Shown here one piece after another: positions 55,536 through 63,925 of a stretch of 64,000 nt of DNA. The stretch's first letter is position 1. Every line of letters starts with the position of its first letter. Source of the DNA: a bacterium (GTDB lineage: Bacteria > Patescibacteriota > Saccharimonadia > CAILAD01 > GCA-016700035); contig CP064998.1 of NCBI GenBank assembly GCA_016700035.1, forward strand, positions 398,790 to 462,789, read 5' to 3'. The notes under the pieces are model-generated. The model saw only the letters and a list, made by a program, of their open reading frames with translations, did not search any database and was not told the DNA's origin. Position numbers and translations under genes: made by a program.

Positions 55536-55552
55536 CCTCCTGGATTATTGTT

Positions 55553-55601
55553 TTTGTATATATAGTGTAGTTTATTAAACTAATTACACTATATATAGCG
55601 T
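55553..55601. promoter_or_regulatory. Pair of NrdR-box-like palindromes overlapping the probable nrdAB promoter
   Basis: 'acactatatatagcgt' (55586-55601) matches the acaCwAtATaTwGtgt consensus at 15/16 positions. 'tttgtatatatagtgt' (55553-55568) matches one half-site. Centres about 33 bp apart. A TTGACA-16-TATATA promoter on the minus strand overlaps them. Confidence 0.4.
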
Positions 55602-55938
55602 AGTATAATGATGTCAAACCATTTATGGTTGCTTGACTTAAATTAGTATCACTCTCACTGCACACATATTTTACTTACGAACATAATACGAAAATACTTA
55701 TATTCGTGTCAACCCCCACTACAAACGTGCATATCAATCTATTACCTATAATACGCACCAATATAGCAGGGAGCAAATATTAAAAAACACCCTTAAACGA
55801 AGGCCCTACAATCTGGTAATATATGTCTAATTGTGGTATAGTTTCTAAGTTCAAAATCTATCAATACCATATTTTGCGCGAAGTGTTGCACCGCAAATAT
55901 ACCCCAAAAGAAGCTAAAGAGTATTTCAGCCACCGCTC

Positions 55939-56013
55939 GGTCCCATCGTCTAACGGTTAGGACGCCAGATTCTCAATCTGGAAATCGGAGTTCGATTCTC
56001 CGTGGGATCACCA
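55939..56013 (+). tRNA. tRNA-Glu (anticodon CTC)
   Basis: Cloverleaf built by hand. Acceptor 'ggtccca'/'tgggatc' with discriminator A and CCA. T-arm 'cggag ttcgatt ctccg'. Anticodon stem 'ccaga'/'tctgg' with loop 'ttCTCaa'. Confidence 0.8.
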
Positions 56014-56019
56014 AAACAA

Positions 56020-56046
56020 GAGCCCCTGAAAGTGGGGTTTTTGTTT
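56020..56046 (+). terminator. Weak hairpin plus T-tract after the tRNA
   Basis: 'agcccctgaaagtggggtttttgtttt'. Confidence 0.4.
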
Positions 56047-56310
56047 TGGTGGTTTCTCTACGCGAGAAACGAATCGAACACCGGTTCGAAGAACAAGGCA
56101 GCGCACAGGAGTTTACTCCGAGCACTGCTGCAGTTCGCAAGCCTTTAGGCTTATTCCCCGTGAGGTCACCAAGTAGAAAATACAACTAATAACAGATAAG
56201 AAAGTGTTCTAAAATATATTCAAGACACTTTCTTTTTTGTATCCCACCTCTGTAACATCGAGTTCTAATCCCGTATGGTCACGAAGCTGTTTGCATCCCT
56301 TTCACCATGG

Positions 56311-56319
56311 TGTATAATA
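56311..56319 (+). promoter_or_regulatory. Extended -10 element (TGtgTATAAT) upstream of the DGR target gene
   Basis: 'tgtataat' 65 bp before ATG 56384. Confidence 0.4.
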
Positions 56320-56383
56320 TACGTAAGCAGTTTATTTCAATAGATAAAGCTACAAATATAACTAAACAAGAAAGGAGCCGACC

Positions 56384-57811
56384 ATGGACAGCCAAACCGT
56401 GACCCAGACTATTAACGTTATCGTTGGTGGCGACTCTGGTGCTGGTGGCAACCTGGCCGACACTGGTACATCATTATTCCTGCCAACCCTGATTGCCCTA
56501 ATCCTCCTGACAGCCGGCCTCTTCCTGTGGTACAAAACTACTCGTCGTTCATCTCACTTTAAATTAGCCAACATACGTAAATCGAGCTCTCGGGGCTTCA
56601 GTATCCTCGTCCTGCTTACCCTTGCTACTGTGCTTTCTACCACCAACCTCCCCATTGCCTCTGCCGCTCCCACTCTCTCCCTCGGTACCGACCAGAACAC
56701 CATTCACATAACCGTTCCTCAAGTTGGTGGTACGGCTACGGCTACTACAACTCTCACCAGTGGCACTGCTAACGCCAGCGGTTACACCCTAACCGCCAGC
56801 TTGACTGAACCAGAACCAGGCATTGGCATCAAACTCAAGGGTGGTGATGTCACGACTGACACTAGTCTCAACCCTGGAGACGCTCCACTGACTCTCAAAG
56901 CTACCGACGCTGCATCAAGCAATGATACAACCGACGTAACCCTCACCTTTGCTATAGATGGTAGTGTTACGCCCGGGCAAAAAGAACTAAAGCTCAACTA
57001 CGCTGTCGCTGACAATGAAGCAGAGGGTGAAGCAGGATCTACCCTCCAAGCCTTCACTAGCAGTGACTGTAGTGCACTACCTATCTACACTGGCACCAAT
57101 GAAGAAGCTGTCATCACCCTCACTGACACGAGAGGCGACAACCAAACCTACCAAGTAGCCAAACTAGCCGACAACAACTGCTGGATGTTAGAGAACCTCA
57201 AGCTTGGTAGTACCACAGGCACCCTCACCCTGACACCAAGTGACTCAGACGTAGCCAGCAACTTCACCTTGCCGCAACTCACCACCACCGGCACTACTGA
57301 CCCTGACAACCCCGGAGCCTACGGCCCGGTCACCGGTGATACTGGAGAGGGCGAAACCAACTACGGTTACCTCTACAACTGGCCTGCAGTGACAGCTGGT
57401 GAATCCAGAGCCTCCCACACTGAAACAGACGGTGATGCACCATACTCCATCTGCCCGAGCGGATGGCGCTTGCCAACCGTTGGCTTCAGCTATGACGAAG
57501 AGACAGAGACGGCAACCGCTTCTGGTGATTACTCAAACCTTGACATCGCCTTTGGCGGTACTGGCCAGTACGCAGACAGTGGTGCAAACATTGCCAAATG
57601 GCAACACGATGGACCGTTTAAAGGTACTTTTGCTGGCGGCTGGGACGAGGGCTTCGTCAGCCAGGGTGTCTCCGCTGGCTTGTGGTCTCGTTCAGCCTTC
57701 CCAGACTATGTCGACGACGCAGACCTCGCGGGCTTCAATGCTGGAGTAGTCTATCCAGGCGTCGTCGCTCCTCGGGGCGTCGGGCTAGCTGTTCGCTGTC
57801 TCTTACAGTAG
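56384..57811 (+). CDS. DGR target protein: secreted/anchored Thr-rich protein with C-terminal Fib_succ_major/DUF1566-like (C-type-lectin-fold) domain
   Basis: N-terminal TM 'LFLPTLIALILLTAGLFLWY'. 'NNCWMLENLKLG' (the CWMAENL signature of TIGR02145/DUF1566). Ends '...GLAVRCLLQ'. The last 61 codons form the VR. Confidence 0.8.
   Translation: MDSQTVTQTINVIVGGDSGAGGNLADTGTSLFLPTLIALILLTAGLFLWYKTTRRSSHFKLANIRKSSSRGFSILVLLTLATVLSTTNLPIASAAPTLSLGTDQNTIHITVPQVGGTATATTTLTSGTANASGYTLTASLTEPEPGIGIKLKGGDVTTDTSLNPGDAPLTLKATDAASSNDTTDVTLTFAIDGSVTPGQKELKLNYAVADNEAEGEAGSTLQAFTSSDCSALPIYTGTNEEAVITLTDTRGDNQTYQVAKLADNNCWMLENLKLGSTTGTLTLTPSDSDVASNFTLPQLTTTGTTDPDNPGAYGPVTGDTGEGETNYGYLYNWPAVTAGESRASHTETDGDAPYSICPSGWRLPTVGFSYDEETETATASGDYSNLDIAFGGTGQYADSGANIAKWQHDGPFKGTFAGGWDEGFVSQGVSAGLWSRSAFPDYVDDADLAGFNAGVVYPGVVAPRGVGLAVRCLLQ
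57628..57810 (+). repeat. DGR variable repeat (VR) at the 3' end of the target gene
   Basis: Aligns base for base with 59914-60096. About 24 mismatches, all at TR adenines (TR AAC codons against VR GTC/TCC/GGC/GAC/CTC/TAT etc.). Confidence 0.85.
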
Positions 57812-57861
57812 AATCAGATTCATCTGAGGCTACTGTCTGGGTAGCCCACAAAGCGAGGCAT

Positions 57862-57893
57862 GGCGGTTAGGGGTGACCACCCCTAACCCCGCC
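57862..57893 (+). other. GC-rich hairpin about 50 bp downstream of the VR; candidate DGR homing cis-structure or terminator
   Basis: 'ggcggttagggg tgaccac cccctaaccccgcc' forms a near-perfect 12-bp stem. Confidence 0.45.
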
Positions 57894-57939
57894 GAGTCGA
57901 CTGGGTGCCCCAGCAAACGAAAATAACAAAATCTATGTA

Positions 57940-57967
57940 TTGACATGCTAACTAAAGTGTATACAAT
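57940..57967 (+). promoter_or_regulatory. Sigma70-like promoter TTGACA-16-TACAAT driving the toxin-antitoxin pair; probably a leaderless transcript
   Basis: 'ttgacatgctaactaaagtgtatacaat', with the ATG at 57975 about 7-8 nt after the -10. Confidence 0.4.
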
Positions 57968-57974
57968 GGTTAGT

Positions 57975-58256
57975 ATGAGTACTGTATTGAATGTAAAAAT
58001 TGATCCCGCTCTAAAGAAGAGGGCTCAGAGTGTTGCCAAAGAGCTCGGCTTGCCTATGAGTATAGTGGTAGCTGCCAGTTTGCGAGAGTTCGTTAATACC
58101 AGGAGCATAACTATATCGGATTCGCCACGGCTTAGGCCAGAAGTGGAGGCCGAATTACTGGCTATGTCAAAAAAAGTACGTGCTGGTGAGCTAGATGATT
58201 ATTCGCCTGCTTTTAATAATATAGAAGAAAGCTTTGCGTGGCTTAATGCAAAATGA
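57975..58256 (+). CDS. DinJ/RelB-family antitoxin
   Basis: 'MSTVLNVKIDPALKKRAQSVAKELGLPMSIVV...' matches the DinJ N-terminal ribbon-helix-helix pattern. It overlaps the toxin gene by 4 nt (ATGA). Alternative ATG starts at 57966 and 57945. Confidence 0.65.
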   Translation: MSTVLNVKIDPALKKRAQSVAKELGLPMSIVVAASLREFVNTRSITISDSPRLRPEVEAELLAMSKKVRAGELDDYSPAFNNIEESFAWLNAK

Positions 58257-58513
58257 CTATAAGGTATAGTAAAAAATTCAGAAAACAGTACAAAAAACTT
58301 ACTCCAAAGATGCAACAAAAAACCACAGACGCCATAAAGCTCTGGTCGCAAAAGCCCAATGACGAGTCGCTTCGGTTACATAAACTTAGCGGTAAGATGA
58401 GCCGTTTTTACAGCATTGATATAGCTGGCGACTTACGAGCACTGTATGAAATTGTAGATAACGAAGTATTTTTGTACCAAATGGTCGGTACGCATAGTCA
58501 GTTATACGGCTAA
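58253..58513 (+). CDS. YafQ/RelE-ParE-family type II toxin (mRNA interferase)
   Basis: 'YSKKFRKQYKKL...' and C-terminal 'MVGTHSQLYG' (compare YafQ 'RTGTHAALFG'). 86 aa. Confidence 0.75.
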   Translation: MTIRYSKKFRKQYKKLTPKMQQKTTDAIKLWSQKPNDESLRLHKLSGKMSRFYSIDIAGDLRALYEIVDNEVFLYQMVGTHSQLYG

Positions 58514-58582
58514 CGTAAGCCGAGGGGGGCAGCAGATCTAAAACTAATCTTTTAACCGAGTTGTCTAGATTCAAAATAAAAT

Positions 58583-59686
58583 TTGTCAGCAAACACAATG
58601 AAAATAAACACCCAACACAACCGTACGTCGTGGCTCTCAAAAGAACTCGGGAAAGCTTATGTAGACGCCCGACGTGGTAAAACAAAGAAGCCAGAAGTGG
58701 AAAAGTTCGACAAAATTGCCAAATCAGAACTGGTGGCGCTGGCACAAGAAATTCATACGCGTACCTACATGCCACGACCGTCAACTGCTTTCATTGTCAA
58801 CAAACCCATCAAACGAGAGATATTTGCAGCTGCCTTTCGTGATCGAGTAGTACATCACTTTTTGTTCAACCAAGTAAGTAGTTGGTGGGATGCCCGGTTT
58901 ATTGAAGATAACTACAGTTGCCGCCTCGGCAAGGGTACACTGTATGGTATTCGCCGGCTTGACCACCACATTCGTTCAGTCAGTCGTAACTACACCCGTC
59001 CAGCCTACATACTAAAGCTTGATTTTCAGGGATACTTCATGAGTCTGGAGCGCAAAAAGCTCTACAGCCGGGCCATGTGGGGACTGAATCGGCAGTTCCC
59101 TAATCAGGGCTACGCCTACCAATTGTGTAAGTTTTTGTGGAAGGTCATTATCTTTAACGACCCACTGAAAGAGGCAGTGTTCAACTGTCCGCGTAGTGCT
59201 TGGAAAGGTCTGCCGCCCAGCAAGAGTTTGTTTCACCAGCCCAAAGGCCGTGGTATTGCCATTGGCAACCTAACCTCACAGCTACTGAGTAATATCTATC
59301 TTGACCAACTAGATCGATTTGTGACGCTGGAGCTCGGCTTCAAACACTATGGACGCTACGTTGATGATTTCTACATCGTTTCAAGTGATAAAAATGAACT
59401 GGTTGAAGCGACCAGGACAATAGAGCGCTATGTAGAGGATCAGTTGGCACTAAAACTGCATCCTCATAAGCGACACCTGCAGGAATGTAGCCGTGGTGTG
59501 GCCTTCCTTGGGGCGGTTGTCTACCCATTTCGCTTGCACCCAGGCAAACGCTTGAAACGCAACTTACTAGCGGCACTTTCGAACCCGGATTGCTCAAAAG
59601 AAACCGAAGCATCGTATCGAGGGCTGGTGAAGCATTATAAACACAAAAAGCTTCTTGGTGGTTTAAAACTTCGGGGGGTACAATAA
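58583..59686 (+). CDS. DGR-type reverse transcriptase
   Basis: RT motifs 'LDFQGYFMSL' (2), 'IGNLTSQLLSNIYLDQLD' (4, with the DGR-specific SQ in place of SP) and 'YVDDFYIVS' (5, YxDD). About 367 aa, typical for a DGR reverse transcriptase. No Avd-like ORF is adjacent. Confidence 0.85.
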   Translation: MSANTMKINTQHNRTSWLSKELGKAYVDARRGKTKKPEVEKFDKIAKSELVALAQEIHTRTYMPRPSTAFIVNKPIKREIFAAAFRDRVVHHFLFNQVSSWWDARFIEDNYSCRLGKGTLYGIRRLDHHIRSVSRNYTRPAYILKLDFQGYFMSLERKKLYSRAMWGLNRQFPNQGYAYQLCKFLWKVIIFNDPLKEAVFNCPRSAWKGLPPSKSLFHQPKGRGIAIGNLTSQLLSNIYLDQLDRFVTLELGFKHYGRYVDDFYIVSSDKNELVEATRTIERYVEDQLALKLHPHKRHLQECSRGVAFLGAVVYPFRLHPGKRLKRNLLAALSNPDCSKETEASYRGLVKHYKHKKLLGGLKLRGVQ

Positions 59687-59913
59687 CAGTATGCTTTGCT
59701 TGGCGGCAACCGGGTAATGCTTGGTGGCAACTATTGCTTGTTACCCGGTGAGTAGTCAGGCAGATAAGCATATGTAAGAGACAATACTCACTAGTCTTGA
59801 TGTGATGAAGACTAGTTCTGTGGGAGTAGCGCCACCAAGACTTGCCTGCATTCGGTACGCTGAGTGCAGGATAATGAGTAGTATTGTAAGGTAGTCCGGT
59901 GGTGTGTTCCGGG

Positions 59914-60096
59914 TTTTGCTGGCAACTGGGACGAGGGCTTCGACAACCAGGGTGACAACGCTAACTTGTGGTCTCGTTCAGCCTTCCCAGACAATGTCGA
60001 CAACGCAGACAACGCGAACTTCAATGCTGGAGAAGTCAATCCAGGCAACAACGCTCCTCGGGGCAACGGGCTAGCTGTTCGCTGACTCTTACGGTA
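59914..60096 (+). repeat. DGR template repeat (TR), downstream of the reverse transcriptase
   Basis: Cognate of the VR. Carries A (mostly as AAC) at every variable position. Not inside a long ORF. Confidence 0.85.
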
Positions 60097-60121
60097 TATT
60101 TTGTGGTGGCTCTATGGCTTG

Positions 60122-62716
60122 CTACACCTCAATCGGCTCATCTTCCGAGTCATTATCTTTAGCGTCTTGTGTTTCATGAGACTCGGTTTTATCTGCTTTT
60201 TTCTTTTTCGTTTCATCTTCGTACTCATACGCATACAACTTCCTTGAAGACTCTATGACTTTCCGAGCCATAGCCTTATCTCCCTCGTCTTCCAGAAGCA
60301 AAGTCTCCCCAGACATCGGTTCCTGCGATCGTATAGCACTCAGCCTTGCATAGAAATTGTAACTGGGTAGATTGGCTATCTCGCCTTCATCGATAAATGG
60401 CTTAAATAATGGTAGTACCAATTGCTCATCTACCGGGCTACCCGTCCTAAAGCTAATAACTGTACCAACATTGGCTAAGATTATCTGGACTAGTCTTTGT
60501 TCGTCCTGCTGTGCTGTAGACTGCTCAGCCATAGTCAGAAACAGCTTGTATTTACGAGCTTCGGATAGCATCTGGACAAACGGCATCGTCGCAAAGTTCT
60601 GGAATTCATCGACGTAGAGGTAAAATGGTTCTCGCTCGTCTTGGGTTAACCGAGATCTACGTAAAGCTGCTAACTGTAGCTTGGCCAGCACAGCTGTACC
60701 AAATAGTTCTGACGTATCCTCTCCCAGGTTGCCCTTGCTGAAGTTGCAGATCAGGATCTTGCCAGAAAACAGGATATCATCAAAGTCGATGGTCGATTTG
60801 GGTCTGCACATAACTCGTTTGGTACTGGGCGAGAATTCAAAGCGACCAATTTTGCTGGTTACTCCATGGCTCATCTTGACTCGTTGCATCGCACCGGCTT
60901 TACCGAGTTCATTCTGCCAGAAGTTCTTTAAGGTTCCAGCTGGCAGTGCATTGGTTATTTTCTTACGGTAGTTGTCGTTAGTGAGGAGTTCAAAGATAGT
61001 GAAGATAGTGGGATCGTCAGTTGTTAGGGCTGTTTGTATAGCGTTGCGGAGCACATACTCAATCCGATGTCCTCCTGAATCATCGTCGGAGAATATTTTA
61101 CGGAGTACCGATATGACTGATTCAGTCACTCGATCTTTTTCTCGCTCCAAAGCACTACCAGTCAGACCATCTGGTATTTCTAGCAGGTTCATAGCCAGTG
61201 GATGGTCAATATCGTCAGGATTAAAGTAGATAACATCTTTGATTCTATCTTTTGGAATGTATTTGAGCAGTGTTAAAGCCATATCTCCGTGAGGATCAAT
61301 GACGGCTAATCCCTTACCATCTTTAATATCTTGAATGATACCGTACTGAAGCATAGTGGTTTTACCGTTTCCTGTTCCGCCAATAATATAGACATGCCGT
61401 TCACGTTCAGCCTCAGTGAGGCCTATTAAGGTTTCGCTGCCAAGGTGACTGTTCTTGCCTAAGGTCACATCAAGATACTTTGCACTCTTGAGAGAGGTTG
61501 GTGCTGGCAAGGTTTTGCTGAGTGACTTTGAGATGTTTTCAGTGCGAGCTGACGTACTATGAGGGAAATGGTATAAGGCACTCAGTTCAGTCGAGCTTAA
61601 AACATTACTATTTCTATGCACTAGTGACGGCAAGCGATGATCGAGTACCCATATCCGATGTCGCACACCAAGCCACGGTATCCAAGCTCTCGTGGTTCGT
61701 AGTCTTTGCCAGGTTGGGGTAGCGTAGGTAGCCATCGAGTTAGCTAGTGATTGGGCTCTAGATTTAGCTCGGGCTTTATCTGTAGCCACAATCTGAGTCC
61801 GGATATCGACATAAAATAAGTCTTGGGTTAACTTGTCATGCATTCGGTCCAAAAGCTCTTGTTCGGCCGGAGGGATATGGGTATTAGTAGGTAGACTGTT
61901 AGTAGCTTTAGAGCTTGCTGGTATATCGTGATACAGAAAACCATAAATCATACTCCAGGCAATAACAAACGGTAGCTTTACAATCGCAAAGATAATCCGA
62001 AAGATGCTTTTATGACCAAACTTTTTCTCAAGGCTTGATCCCGACCAGTAACCCTGGCGTATCTTACGATCAATTGCAAAAGCCTCAGAGATAACAGCTG
62101 GCGTGACGACGAGTTGTAAACTAACCCGTTCATTATCTTCAAGCTTTGTCATCGAGCTGGTTAAGTAGGCGACTGGATCATGTTCATGCAGGGACTTTGA
62201 CGTATCCAGGGGCATAGCGTAGTGTTCAGTTTGTTTGTAGGTTTGCAGAGCCATAAATCCTTTGGTCTCACGACTATCTTTAACGACTTGAACTTTTACG
62301 TCAGGACTGTAGGCAGCAACTGCCTGCCGGATAAGTTCCTCGGCTGCCTTACTTGACCGTATAAGATAACGAATACCTTTGTCTTTGGTTGATACTATCT
62401 CTAGCGAAAATGACGGTACATAGCGTAAAATTACATCCTTGAAACTTCGTGATTTAAGGAGGCCATGTAGTACTGAGAATAGCTGCGTGGTGGCAAGTGG
62501 AGCTTTGTTGGTAAAAGCCGGTGGTGTCAACTCAAGTAAAACTGCTTCCTGTTTGTACTTTCGGTAGTAATTATAGAGTCTAAGGATAAGACCAATAACG
62601 AAAGCCAGTACAGTGATTAACACAACAAGGAGCCCTAACCACGGTAAAATGGTTTGTAGTCTTTCAACTATCTGCCCACCAGAATTATCCGTCATGGCAG
62701 CTCCTGTAGTTTCCAA
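60122..62716 (-). CDS. Membrane-anchored P-loop ATPase, type IV secretion coupling protein-like (TraD/VirD4/TrwB or HerA-FtsK-related)
   Basis: N-terminal TM 'LGLLVVLITVLAFVIGLIL'. Walker A 'IIGGTGNGKTT'. Walker B 'FYLYVDEFQNF'. Acidic C-terminal tail. Confidence 0.55.
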   Translation of the reverse strand: METTGAAMTDNSGGQIVERLQTILPWLGLLVVLITVLAFVIGLILRLYNYYRKYKQEAVLLELTPPAFTNKAPLATTQLFSVLHGLLKSRSFKDVILRYVPSFSLEIVSTKDKGIRYLIRSSKAAEELIRQAVAAYSPDVKVQVVKDSRETKGFMALQTYKQTEHYAMPLDTSKSLHEHDPVAYLTSSMTKLEDNERVSLQLVVTPAVISEAFAIDRKIRQGYWSGSSLEKKFGHKSIFRIIFAIVKLPFVIAWSMIYGFLYHDIPASSKATNSLPTNTHIPPAEQELLDRMHDKLTQDLFYVDIRTQIVATDKARAKSRAQSLANSMATYATPTWQRLRTTRAWIPWLGVRHRIWVLDHRLPSLVHRNSNVLSSTELSALYHFPHSTSARTENISKSLSKTLPAPTSLKSAKYLDVTLGKNSHLGSETLIGLTEAERERHVYIIGGTGNGKTTMLQYGIIQDIKDGKGLAVIDPHGDMALTLLKYIPKDRIKDVIYFNPDDIDHPLAMNLLEIPDGLTGSALEREKDRVTESVISVLRKIFSDDDSGGHRIEYVLRNAIQTALTTDDPTIFTIFELLTNDNYRKKITNALPAGTLKNFWQNELGKAGAMQRVKMSHGVTSKIGRFEFSPSTKRVMCRPKSTIDFDDILFSGKILICNFSKGNLGEDTSELFGTAVLAKLQLAALRRSRLTQDEREPFYLYVDEFQNFATMPFVQMLSEARKYKLFLTMAEQSTAQQDEQRLVQIILANVGTVISFRTGSPVDEQLVLPLFKPFIDEGEIANLPSYNFYARLSAIRSQEPMSGETLLLEDEGDKAMARKVIESSRKLYAYEYEDETKKKKADKTESHETQDAKDNDSEDEPIEV

Positions 62717-62764
62717 TCTGATTGCATAAAGAGTAACAGAGGTGGTCTAAGGAGGCAATAGCTG

Positions 62765-63925
62765 TTATTTACTGAACTGTGAATCTTGTATTGGTAGATA
62801 GCCTTGAGTGTCGAGTTGCATGACTACACCAAGAGTCAATGCGTTGCGATTTAGCCGGATAGTGTAGCGACGAGACTTGTCTCCATCCAATGGTCGCAAG
62901 AAGTTTTGCTGTCGTAATTTACGGATGGCTTTCGAGATGTTAACGTGTGATATTTCGTCTGCAAATAGTGGCTTGAAATCAGCAGCTTGAACAATGTCTT
63001 TTTCTATAGCTATTTTGAGCATTTTGTACTCGAGTTCATTAATGCGTTGTTTTTCTAGTGCATAATCAAGGGCAGGTACAATAATTTTTCCTTTTGTAAA
63101 AGACGCATCGAGTAATTCGTTGACATTGTCTACTTCATTTTTGACACCACGTAACATGTACTCACACCACTTGAGTATTCCAGGATCAGTGTTTTTGTCA
63201 GCCTCGGCAAGCATAGCGTAATACTGGTTTCTATCATTGCCAAATACGGCTGCAGGGCTTAGTAAACGCATACCGTCCCCATCAATAAAACCTTGTTTTG
63301 TGAGCATCGCATAAGTAAGAAGCCTGACGACTCGTCCGTTGCCATTACCAAAGGGGTGAATCCACGTAAAGTAGTGGTGTGCTACCGCATCTTTCAGTAG
63401 ATCGAACTGTGGATCAACCTTTTGATTTATAAAATCAAAAAGGTTGTCCATTAAATCTGGAATATCTGACCAGGCTGCAAGGGAGATATTCGATTTACTT
63501 ATACTACGTGGTTCATTTCTATACGCTCCAGCACGCGTATCACCCTCCTTAGACGGGTCTAGGCCATCAACGACGATCTGGTGCAAACGGAGGATCAGCG
63601 CTTTATTTATGATGAGGTCTGAACCTTGCTTCTCGATAAAGTCGATACCCTTCTCGATGTTTGTGATTTCACGGATCTGTTCGGTCTGCTTTGTAGACTG
63701 ATCTTCATCGTCCCGAACGGCTTCAACAAAATTCGCAACAGTCGTATGGTTACCTTCTATGCGTGCGGAAGCAATACTCTCGATAGCATGGAAGAGCGAT
63801 TTAAGTTCAAAGAAAAGCCAGGGCGGAGTTGAACCGCTGACTCGCCGATTACGAAGACGTTCAAGCTCAATAACTAGCTTGATAGTTTCGGTGTCTACGG
63901 CTGGTTTCGGGATATATAGTTTCAT
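62765..63925 (-). CDS. Fic-family protein (AMPylation / phosphocholination type)
   Basis: Canonical Fic motif 'HPFGNGNGRVVRLL' (HPFx[D/E]GNGR). C-terminal winged-helix-like region. Confidence 0.85.
   Translation of the reverse strand: MKLYIPKPAVDTETIKLVIELERLRNRRVSGSTPPWLFFELKSLFHAIESIASARIEGNHTTVANFVEAVRDDEDQSTKQTEQIREITNIEKGIDFIEKQGSDLIINKALILRLHQIVVDGLDPSKEGDTRAGAYRNEPRSISKSNISLAAWSDIPDLMDNLFDFINQKVDPQFDLLKDAVAHHYFTWIHPFGNGNGRVVRLLTYAMLTKQGFIDGDGMRLLSPAAVFGNDRNQYYAMLAEADKNTDPGILKWCEYMLRGVKNEVDNVNELLDASFTKGKIIVPALDYALEKQRINELEYKMLKIAIEKDIVQAADFKPLFADEISHVNISKAIRKLRQQNFLRPLDGDKSRRYTIRLNRNALTLGVVMQLDTQGYLPIQDSQFSK

Follow-up and report, generated by a model that had tools for sequence, protein, structure and literature searches.

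In this study, we report the analysis of a 64,000-nucleotide stretch of contig CP064998.1 (GenBank assembly GCA_016700035.1, positions 398,790 to 462,789 of the forward strand; hereafter, the window), in which positions 56384 to 60096 very likely hold a functional diversity-generating retroelement (DGR) of Candidatus Saccharibacteria. It lacks the accessory gene avd and consists of a target gene ending in the variable repeat (VR), a reverse transcriptase (RT) gene and the template repeat (TR), in this order, and a mechanism can be put forward for it. The DGR is of a catalogued architecture and comes from a phylum in which such elements are well known. The chief added value of the locus lies in two RNA structures, one 5' of the TR and the other after the VR, both of them new and undescribed.

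The two repeats were recovered by a repeat search as a single direct repeat (57628-57810 and 59914-60096) with a length of 183 nt, an identity of 86% and a spacing of 2286. An earlier reading of this DNA, made from the letters alone (the sequence-only reading), had proposed a repeat of about 183 bp at these positions with its mismatches on TR adenines, and the pairwise alignment bears this out: the copies align without gaps and differ at 25 positions, at 24 of which the TR base is A (A>G 11, A>T 11, A>C 2). Given the 45 adenines of the 183-nt TR, such a concentration on A (24 or more of 25 mismatches) has a hypergeometric probability of 1.2e-16. The one further mismatch that had been noticed at the 3' edge is a G (TR) to A (VR) change at 60093/57807. 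With respect to the target frame, 23 of the 24 A-site changes lie in codon position 1 or 2, and the TR codons at the variable sites are chiefly AAC (10), AAT (3) and GAC. The sole change in codon position 3 is the A>T at 60085/57799. Since the same split, GACTCTT in the TR and GTCTCTT in the VR, recurs in each of the 22 related loci in which both copies are present, this change is, as far as the comparison of loci tells, a fixed difference of the IMH/IMH* type (IMH, initiation of mutagenic homing) and not a product of random mutagenesis. The VR/TR divergence of the window is thus made up of 23 mutagenic plus 2 fixed or edge differences, and the mutagenised zone of the VR is free of non-A mismatches. 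As a result of the fixed A/T difference, a stop codon enters the TR reading frame: the TR codon matching the invariant Cys472 of the target is TGA (60083-60085), and the VR codon is TGT (57797-57799). The copied zone of the TR contains 42 adenines and 22 variable codons, none of them convertible to a stop, which allow for about 10^20.8 possible peptides. No further VR-like copies were found in the window when only non-A TR positions were scored.

The open reading frame (ORF) between the repeats carries an RVT_1 domain (Pfam) together with the motifs IGNLTSQ (with SQ) and YVDDF. These motifs had been taken as DGR-type in the sequence-only reading, and they align with IGSLTSQ and YMDD of bRT, the RT of Bordetella phage BPP-1. 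Residues N224, S227, Q228 and Y254-D257 are invariant across 56 homologues. The best sequence match in the PDB was the BPP-1 bRT (8ub7; phmmer, E 5.5e-29, all others at 5e-7 or above), and a family-profile search of the same database returned 8ub7 with E 6.6e-42 and the nearest non-bRT entry with 8e-12; group II intron and retron RTs reached only about 1e-7 to 1e-11 in these searches. An AlphaFold2 model (predicted local distance difference test 94) had 8ub7_A as its best Foldseek match (E 6.6e-18, template-modelling score 0.83), with bRT states filling the top 5 places ahead of group II intron RTs. The RT belongs to the DGR clade by sequence, profile and fold similarity, and bRT is its closest match when group II intron and retron RTs are judged by the same similarity and fold comparisons. 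The adenine bias, the class of the RT and the TR/VR comparisons all agree with the DGR with adenine-specific mutagenic homing that had been proposed. RT motifs 3 and 4 are separated by an insertion of about 37 aa that is conserved and has no counterpart in BPP-1 bRT (residues ~158-214, window ~59070-59245). At this position group II intron RTs carry the processivity-linked 3a/alpha-loop, which DGR RTs are said to lack; the insertion might offset the missing Avd.

The order of the cassette was compared by running a simple TR/VR detector on 80 genome loci. All close relatives (RT at least 71% identical) show target/VR, RT and TR on one strand, with the TR beginning about 170-245 nt past the RT stop codon, and at least 14 relatives share the target-RT-TR order. 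As the sequence-only reading had stated, the cassette contains no Avd gene: no unassigned ORF of at least 71 aa was found in 55536-60121, no conserved ORF of the size of Avd in the 11 related cassettes inspected, and the one 136-aa neighbour ORF examined had no Pfam match. Avd accompanies about 74% of DGRs and is not strictly defining. According to the survey of Wu et al. (2018; PMC5758913), DGRs without accessory gene form Architecture A (29%), Avd-less elements amount to 26-29% of the set surveyed, the RT-TR order is subtype A2, an Avd-less lineage ('Lineage 3') exists, and the 'X' variants, with non-conserved ORFs between the target and the core, occur in all architectures. The cassette is therefore Architecture A2-X of these authors, with an RT-TR core that lacks an accessory gene, as in A2/'Lineage 3', and with unrelated nested ORFs, here relBE. 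The earlier description of the architecture as atypical is largely not supported, since the TR-after-RT order without Avd is A2, nested ORFs define the X variants and the relatives share the order; it is unusual only among the candidate phyla radiation (CPR), where it is a minority type and where about 90% of the DGRs surveyed were B3, TR-(avd)-RT (Wu et al., 2018). It must be noted that the same work only postulated an Avd-independent mechanism and described no cis RNA structure for A2 elements, whereas the clade of the window has such structures.

The first of these lies between the RT and the TR. The sequence from the RT stop codon to beyond the TR was aligned for 17 loci, plus 8 further metagenome loci, and an explicit structure was tested on it. 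In the 17-locus alignment, conservation was strong before the TR, and there was none after the TR in 8 of the 17 loci. Five pairings, H1 to H5 (Table 1), are supported by covariation across these sequences. In H1, which joins an upstream primer-like strand to the 3' end of the TR, the core AAGAG.C/G.CTCTT is invariant, A59781 stands opposite A60085 in every sequence, and the three flanking pairs covary (UA18/CG3/UG1, CG13/GC4/GU1/UA1 and UA8/UG8/CG3). The VR was considered as the covarying partner of the upstream strand and was rejected: the core fits the VR better, but the bases flanking it covary with the TR and not with the VR. An alternative register of H2 (ACTCA/TGAGT) was also discarded, compensatory changes in two loci (L013 and L086) supporting only CAATACT/AGTATTG. 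Over H1-H5, 90.5-97.2% of the cells were paired and 22 pairs had changed on both sides, compared with 4-8 in registers slid by 1-3 columns, and a shuffle control reached the observed values in 0 of 500 cases. RNAalifold independently recovered H3, H4 and H5; it cannot predict H1 and H2, because both cross H4 and form a pseudoknot. A covariance model of the domain (R1) detected it in 6 loci outside its training set, each time just after the RT, and once in the window. Rfam returned only tRNA, both for the window at the gathering threshold and for 57780-60140 at E<=1, and its RT-1 to RT-19 motifs gave no match. A 5' spacer in a DGR was not found described in the literature searched, which is not proof of absence.

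The arrangement can be compared with that of the BPP-1 ribonucleoprotein, in which a spacer (Sp) lies 3' of the TR and Sp47-56 pairs with TR117-129 as the template:primer duplex, A56 priming and G117 being the first template base (Handa et al., bioRxiv 10.1101/2023.10.23.563531). Two nucleotides later, Sp59-70 of that RNA pairs with the sequence just 5' of the TR (the cPRT Stop), and a short stem-loop, a single-stranded ring and an RT-binding stem-loop follow; the Avd-binding stem-loop is placed between the TR and the primer strand. The survey of RNAs in the same study covered Avd-containing DGRs only, with 40 nt upstream and 100 nt downstream of the TR. Apart from the RT, with its I/LGxxxSQ and YxDD motifs and the same predicted fold, the window shares with BPP-1 (mtd-avd-TR-brt; Handa et al., 2018) the A-specific TR/VR changes, a target gene with a 3'-terminal VR, fixed IMH-like differences, a hairpin after the VR and, in its RNA, a strand that pairs with the TR 3' end, then a strand that pairs just 5' of the TR, a short stem-loop and more stem-loops. 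The Sp-like domain, however, is 5' of the TR in the window and not 3', as in a circular permutation: the order is primer-like strand, stop-like strand, short stem-loop, further stems, stop partner, TR and template strand, which is that of the BPP-1 RNA if its ends were joined and it was then opened between the TR and Sp. The window has neither an avd gene nor an Avd-binding stem-loop; the segment that would join the TR 3' end to the primer strand does not exist in the permuted order. The loss of the stem-loop fits the missing avd. Other differences are a linker of 0 nt between the primer-like and stop-like strands (2 nt in BPP-1), the universal A.A mismatch beside the duplex end, the RT insertion of about 37 aa, an extra 77-nt structure after the VR and a cellular or integrative and conjugative element (ICE)-like location, BPP-1 being phage-borne.

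By analogy with the Bordetella phage DGR RNA, we propose that the transcript running from the RT through the structured RNA to the TR would fold with 59773-59782 paired to the TR 3' end (60084-60093) and 59783-59788 paired to 59880-59885. H1 would then be the template:primer duplex, in which the invariant and always mismatched A59781 is the candidate for priming and templating would start at G60084, and H2 would act as a cPRT-Stop-like barrier ending cDNA synthesis just 5' of the TR. The RT would copy the TR with misincorporation opposite A and the cDNA would replace the VR, with directionality given by what only the VR has, namely the fixed GTCTCTT end, the hairpin next to it and the 77-nt element. 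Position 60085 was never transferred to the VR in the 22 loci with both copies, which is consistent with the assignment of A59781 and G60084, and so are the mutated adenines of the 18 clade TR/VR pairs, which come as near as 8 nt to the H1 duplex and G60084. In addition, the primer-like strand is fully complementary to the VR end GTCTCTT and mismatched to the TR; it could for this reason register the RNA-linked cDNA on the VR and so give directionality. On this analogy, the clade may use a circularly permuted, Avd-independent DGR RNA with a spacer-like domain and the candidate primer A59781 5' of the TR, such that the RT and one RNA of about 400 nt would be the complete mutagenic machine and the 77-nt structure would mark the target; in our judgement, this full proposal could equally be right or wrong.

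Several points weigh against the interpretation of the locus given above. The priming role of the upstream strand is argued by analogy. The structure was tested on the sequences from which it had first been drawn by eye, these are only 17-22 related ones, and the RNA shuffle controls keep phylogenetic signal. As H1 and H2 cross H4, they could be alternative conformations. About 90 nt after the TR (60097-60190) are conserved in 9 of the 17 loci, probably as the 3' end of a convergent VirD4-like gene, and a 3' contribution is possible in those 9. The Avd search covers the window, and an avd gene may lie elsewhere in the genome. Activity is deduced from comparisons between assemblies and not at read level, the VR of the closest locus shows 7 non-A differences from that of the window, which denotes some ordinary drift, and the C-type lectin (CLec) fold of the target has moderate backing only. 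With respect to the sequence after the TR, loci L005, L006 and L008 keep the ~90 nt with no VirD4-like gene following, and the stretch may be what is left of the 3' end of that gene or a further piece of RNA that some members of the clade use.

The likeliest alternative is that the RNA 5' of the TR is a 3' untranslated region or stability element of the RT, a regulatory RNA or an RT-binding scaffold, with priming taking place elsewhere (3' of the TR, on nicked RNA or on target DNA). Besides the analogy and the partial conservation 3' of the TR, it gains from the fact that only 3 pairs of H1 covary, the other 6 being invariant and hence uninformative, and from a distant clade with an inverted TR in which no recognisable counterpart was seen. 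We nevertheless regard it as rather unlikely, since the H1 flanks covary with the TR and not with the VR across about 310 nt, H2 comes directly after the H1 strand with its partner just 5' of the TR, as the template:primer duplex and cPRT Stop do in BPP-1, mutagenised adenines reach to 8 nt from H1, and the 8 of 17 loci that share nothing 3' of the TR have clean A-specific VRs. The distant clade (L021-L080; e.g., L031:7139-7333 and L040:7129-7323) belongs to Saccharibacteria/Nanosyncoccus and has RTs about 50% identical to that of the window. Its TR lies 60-130 nt past the RT stop codon on the opposite strand, so that, seen from the RT strand, the A-specific mismatches appear as T, and its target is on either strand. 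Models R1 and R2 (the latter of the 77-nt element) had no matches in this clade, whose alignment was poor. When both sides of its TR were scanned by duplex energy for a primer-like strand, the positions were scattered and the flanks of unequal length.

Two further structures adjoin the VR. The first is a hairpin at its end, of which the 5' arm is formed by the last target codons and the stop codon. In most relatives it has an 8-bp stem and a 4-nt loop, with arms that change together with the VR flank, and it recalls the inverted repeat after the IMH of BPP-1. Among 22 distinct VR ends, about 13 have a stem of 7 bp or more, compared with 24% of shuffled flanks; the hairpin is absent in about 7 loci. 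The second is the conserved 77-nt element, for which RNAalifold showed compensatory changes at 16 of 26 pairs and one invariant G.U pair. Model R2 gave one match per cassette, always in the VR-RT interval. Its scores were 51-93 bits for the + strand, and no - strand score exceeded 18.5 bits. Because of this strand bias, the comparison favours an RNA or a single-stranded + strand element; a DNA cruciform was considered and is disfavoured by the same bias and by G.U pairs far outnumbering A.C cells. In L003 and L004 the element ends about 15 nt ahead of the RT start codon, and in the window the toxin-antitoxin (TA) insertion parts it from the RT and not from the VR. Target marking, an operator in the 5' untranslated region of the RT and RNA processing are candidate roles.

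The TA pair between the target and the RT had been pointed out as part of the cassette by the sequence-only reading, and on the evidence of family models it is a genuine type II pair of the RelBE/YafQ-DinJ type. The toxin exceeds the curated cut-offs of PF15738 (YafQ_toxin; 41.6 versus 30 bits) and TIGR02385 (41.7 versus 27.9 bits). The antitoxin scores 35.9 bits with TIGR02384, under the cut-off of 45.65, in a family alignment beginning at residue 11 of the ORF, and its homologue in L094 has been called as 93 aa. The pair is confined to the window, L001, L093 and L094; it is missing in L002, with an RT identity of 96%, and in all other relatives, and L002 has a different 144-nt spacer in place of the 705-nt TA segment. 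Given this narrow distribution and its absence from so close a relative, the pair is best read as a recent lineage-specific passenger insertion (in the mechanism proposed, an addiction module between target and RT) and not as a component of the cassette; the earlier note was right about the pair itself but not in treating it as an atypical feature of the cassette, TA being lineage-restricted and X-type ORFs being known. There is no promoter-like site upstream of the RT other than that of the TA operon and no terminator-like site between relE and the RT. Since no other promoter-like site precedes the RT, that of the TA operon may, and probably does, supply RT/TR transcription in this lineage.

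These last observations, the position of the pair between target and RT on the same strand, the 11 of 12 consensus matches of its promoter-like site, the finding of the identical RelE protein solely in this DGR context and the continued VR diversification in TA-bearing lineages could also be explained if the pair had a function within the cassette, where it would stand in for Avd as an accessory module or regulate RT/TR expression in response to stress; this would be a new DGR architecture. We consider this improbable, as L002 and all other relatives lack the pair and have equally clean A-specific VRs, and as nested unrelated ORFs are a known trait of DGR cassettes (PMC5758913). The passenger reading accounts for this distribution. 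RelE-family toxins are mRNA interferases. To our knowledge, they have no role in reverse transcription, and this also counts against a function of the pair in the cassette.

With respect to activity, the closest locus (L001, from a Saccharibacteria metagenome-assembled genome) has an RT 98% identical to that of the window. The TR and the next 25 nt show 0 differences in 208 positions between both loci (0 of 183 in the TR alone), amid flanking segments with identities of 89-96%, while 32 differences separate the two VRs, 25 of them at TR adenines. The scaffold FAGxWxEGFxxQGxxAxLWSRSAFPDxVDxAxxAxFxAGxVxPGxxAPRGxGLAVRCLL is retained in metagenomic target homologues with overall identities of 77-96%, and within the VR the differences among variants P0121-P0127 fall exactly at the AAC, AAT and GAC codons of the TR. 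The clade provides 18 distinct TR/VR pairs; in these, changes had hit 429 of 768 TR-A sites and 85 of 2382 non-A sites, and in the last 60 nt there were non-A differences at 2 of 788 positions. From these comparisons, the DGR is very probably active. A fossil DGR, whose VR/TR signature persisted without homing, would draw on the use of assemblies instead of reads and on the 7 non-A differences of the L001 VR, and we hold it to be very improbable: the RT ORF is unbroken, retains its catalytic motifs and has a high-confidence predicted fold, the TR is 100% conserved amid diverging neighbours, all mismatches of the window VR in the mutagenised zone are at TR adenines, close lineages (93-98% identical) have different VRs at the A-sites, and selection has preserved covariation in both RNA structures. 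Finally, that the locus is no DGR at all but a group II intron or retron-type RT beside a duplicated gene fragment is extremely improbable, since the only support for it, the ranking of group II intron, retron and defence-associated RT models as the first NCBIfam matches, arises because NCBIfam has no DGR RT model and concerns scores far under the cut-offs (e.g., 87 versus 300 bits), and against it stand bRT as the top match by sequence, profile and fold, a p of 1e-16 for the A-specific mismatch pattern and a scan of the window in which neither intron RNA domains nor corresponding Rfam matches were found.

Table 1. Features of the DGR cassette and its surroundings (window positions).
Feature	Position	Strand	Remarks
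Sigma-70-like promoter match, 5' of target	56290..56318	+	TTTGCA-17-TATAAT; consensus match only
DGR target gene	56384..57811	+	475 aa; predicted N-terminal transmembrane helix, beta-sandwich and C-terminal Fib_succ_major/FGE-CLec-like domain ending in VR
VR	57628..57810	+	Mutagenised A-sites 57638-57780; last ~30 nt IMH-like, including fixed T57799
Hairpin at VR end	57805..57836	+	57805-57811 ACAGTAG / 57830-57836 CTACTGT; 18-nt loop
Conserved 77-nt structured element 3' of VR	57838..57915	+	26 base pairs; TGACCA loop; internal loops CACAAAGCGAGGC / GAGTCGACTGGG
TA operon promoter-like site	57940..57967	+	TTGACA-16-TACAAT; 11/12 matches
RelB/DinJ-like antitoxin gene	57975..58256	+	ORF open from 57945; likely start ATG 57975, giving 93 aa
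RelE/YafQ-family toxin gene	58253..58513	+	86 aa; 4-nt overlap with relB
DGR reverse transcriptase	58598..59686	+	362 aa from ATG 58598; ORF open from TTG 58583; IGNLTSQ, YVDD
Sp-like structured RNA domain 5' of TR	59700..59913	+	Covariation; H2-H5 and primer-like strand 59773-59782
H4	59720-59728 / 59831-59839	+	97% paired; both-side changes at 7/9 pairs
H1	59773-59782 / 60084-60093	+	~310 nt apart; primer-like strand with TR 3' end
H2	59783-59788 / 59880-59885	+	100% paired; both-side changes at 4/6 pairs
H3 hairpin	59790-59796 / 59810-59816	+	Directly after H2 strand
H5	59846-59855 / 59860-59869	+	Loop within conserved GGTACGCT
TR	59914..60096	+	3' end 60084-60093 pairs with 59773-59782 (H1); universal A59781.A60085 mismatch

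The target is predicted to have a transmembrane helix at residues 32-54, a beta-sandwich at 97-210 and a C-terminal domain that ends in the VR. A Fib_succ_major-type domain with a C-type lectin fold had been claimed for it. The first part is supported by the Pfam score, 32.7 bits and thus marginally under the cut-off of 33.9, and by homologues annotated as FISUMP/TIGR02145; the fold, of the CLec/formylglycine-generating enzyme (FGE) kind, is plausible and moderately supported, PDB sequence searches and Foldseek with the target being negative. The N-terminus (56384-56670, residues 1-95) contains an LPXTG-like LADTG, a hydrophobic helix and a basic tail, KTTRRS, which have the shape of a sortase sorting signal, yet at the N-terminal end; a second, signal-peptide-like segment ending in PIASA/AP follows the LADTG region, and some homologues are annotated as LPXTG-anchored. 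The number of sigma-70-like sites, one of which precedes the target, was not above the shuffled expectation.

Upstream of the cassette are chromosomal genes (ribonucleotide reductase subunits, GH6, DUF3048 and tRNA-Glu at 55939-56013), and downstream, at 60122-63925 on the - strand, a VirD4/TraD-like coupling protein and a Fic protein are encoded. Genes for a large serine recombinase and a Replic_Relax protein lie ahead of the target in L001 (979-3712), L011 and L093 (1-2042), which suggests that the carrier of the DGR in these relatives is an ICE-like element. The serine recombinase and Replic_Relax genes of L001 were sought in the window and were absent, and the homology between the two loci begins only at 56311. 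Between tRNA-Glu and the DGR there is a tRNA-like remnant (56060-56175, - strand) with the T-arm-like motif GGTGTTCGATTC and an end in ...ACCACCA, on which ARAGORN and Rfam make no call. Given where the L001 homology starts, a mobile island may join the chromosome in this region.

The close relatives of the RT are all from Saccharibacteria or Patescibacteria, and the best matches on viral contigs reach no more than 49% identity with the RT of the window. DGRs of CPR/Patescibacteria were reportedly treated by Paul and colleagues in 2017. One complete DGR of the window type, GC-rich, with an RT identity of 74% and both RNA elements, is on a contig binned as Leucobacter sp., an actinobacterium (L016; JAUCCH010000045.1). 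Actinobacteria are the typical hosts of Saccharibacteria, and the case is one of either mis-binning or transfer. In common with the CPR/Patescibacteria DGRs of DGR clade 2 (Roux et al., 2021; PMC8144416), the element of the window is cellular, belongs to an epibiont with a reduced genome and has a single target with a C-terminal VR. The targets of CPR in that work typically lack recognisable transmembrane or conserved domains, in contrast to the predicted transmembrane helix, beta-sandwich and Fib_succ_major-type domain found here. In comparison with TvpA of Treponema denticola and other variable proteins of FGE/CLec fold, the target has no detectable sequence similarity to solved structures and no Foldseek match, and it falls in the Fib_succ_major (FISUMP) family.

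The topology proposed for the RNA, with the primer 5' of the template, is also that of the retron msr-msd non-coding RNA. In this RNA the priming nucleotide is 5' of the template, and a duplex between the 5' strand and the 3' end of the template sets the start of the cDNA. Retrons differ from the window in that their RT is of another clade and their non-coding RNA comes before the RT gene, not after it; the window has no effector gene, and its template is a protein-coding repeat that is adenine-mutagenised and homed into a gene.

Cis-primed, processive and adenine-mutagenic reverse transcription is unexplained in the approximately one quarter of DGRs without Avd, the sole structural model, that of BPP-1, needing this protein. 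In this regard, the clade of the window is a compact and testable system of an RT of 362 aa, about 215 nt of structured RNA and the TR, with pairs, a candidate priming adenosine and a candidate stop that are defined by covariation. Its reconstitution could be direct, and the need for a single protein would make it attractive for DGR-based directed evolution. The 77-nt structure beside the VR bears on target recognition, which is the least understood step of DGRs. The diversified target, a surface protein predicted to be anchored in the membrane, is encoded on a putative ICE-like element of an obligate epibiont and is thus a plausible determinant of attachment to the host or of phage evasion.

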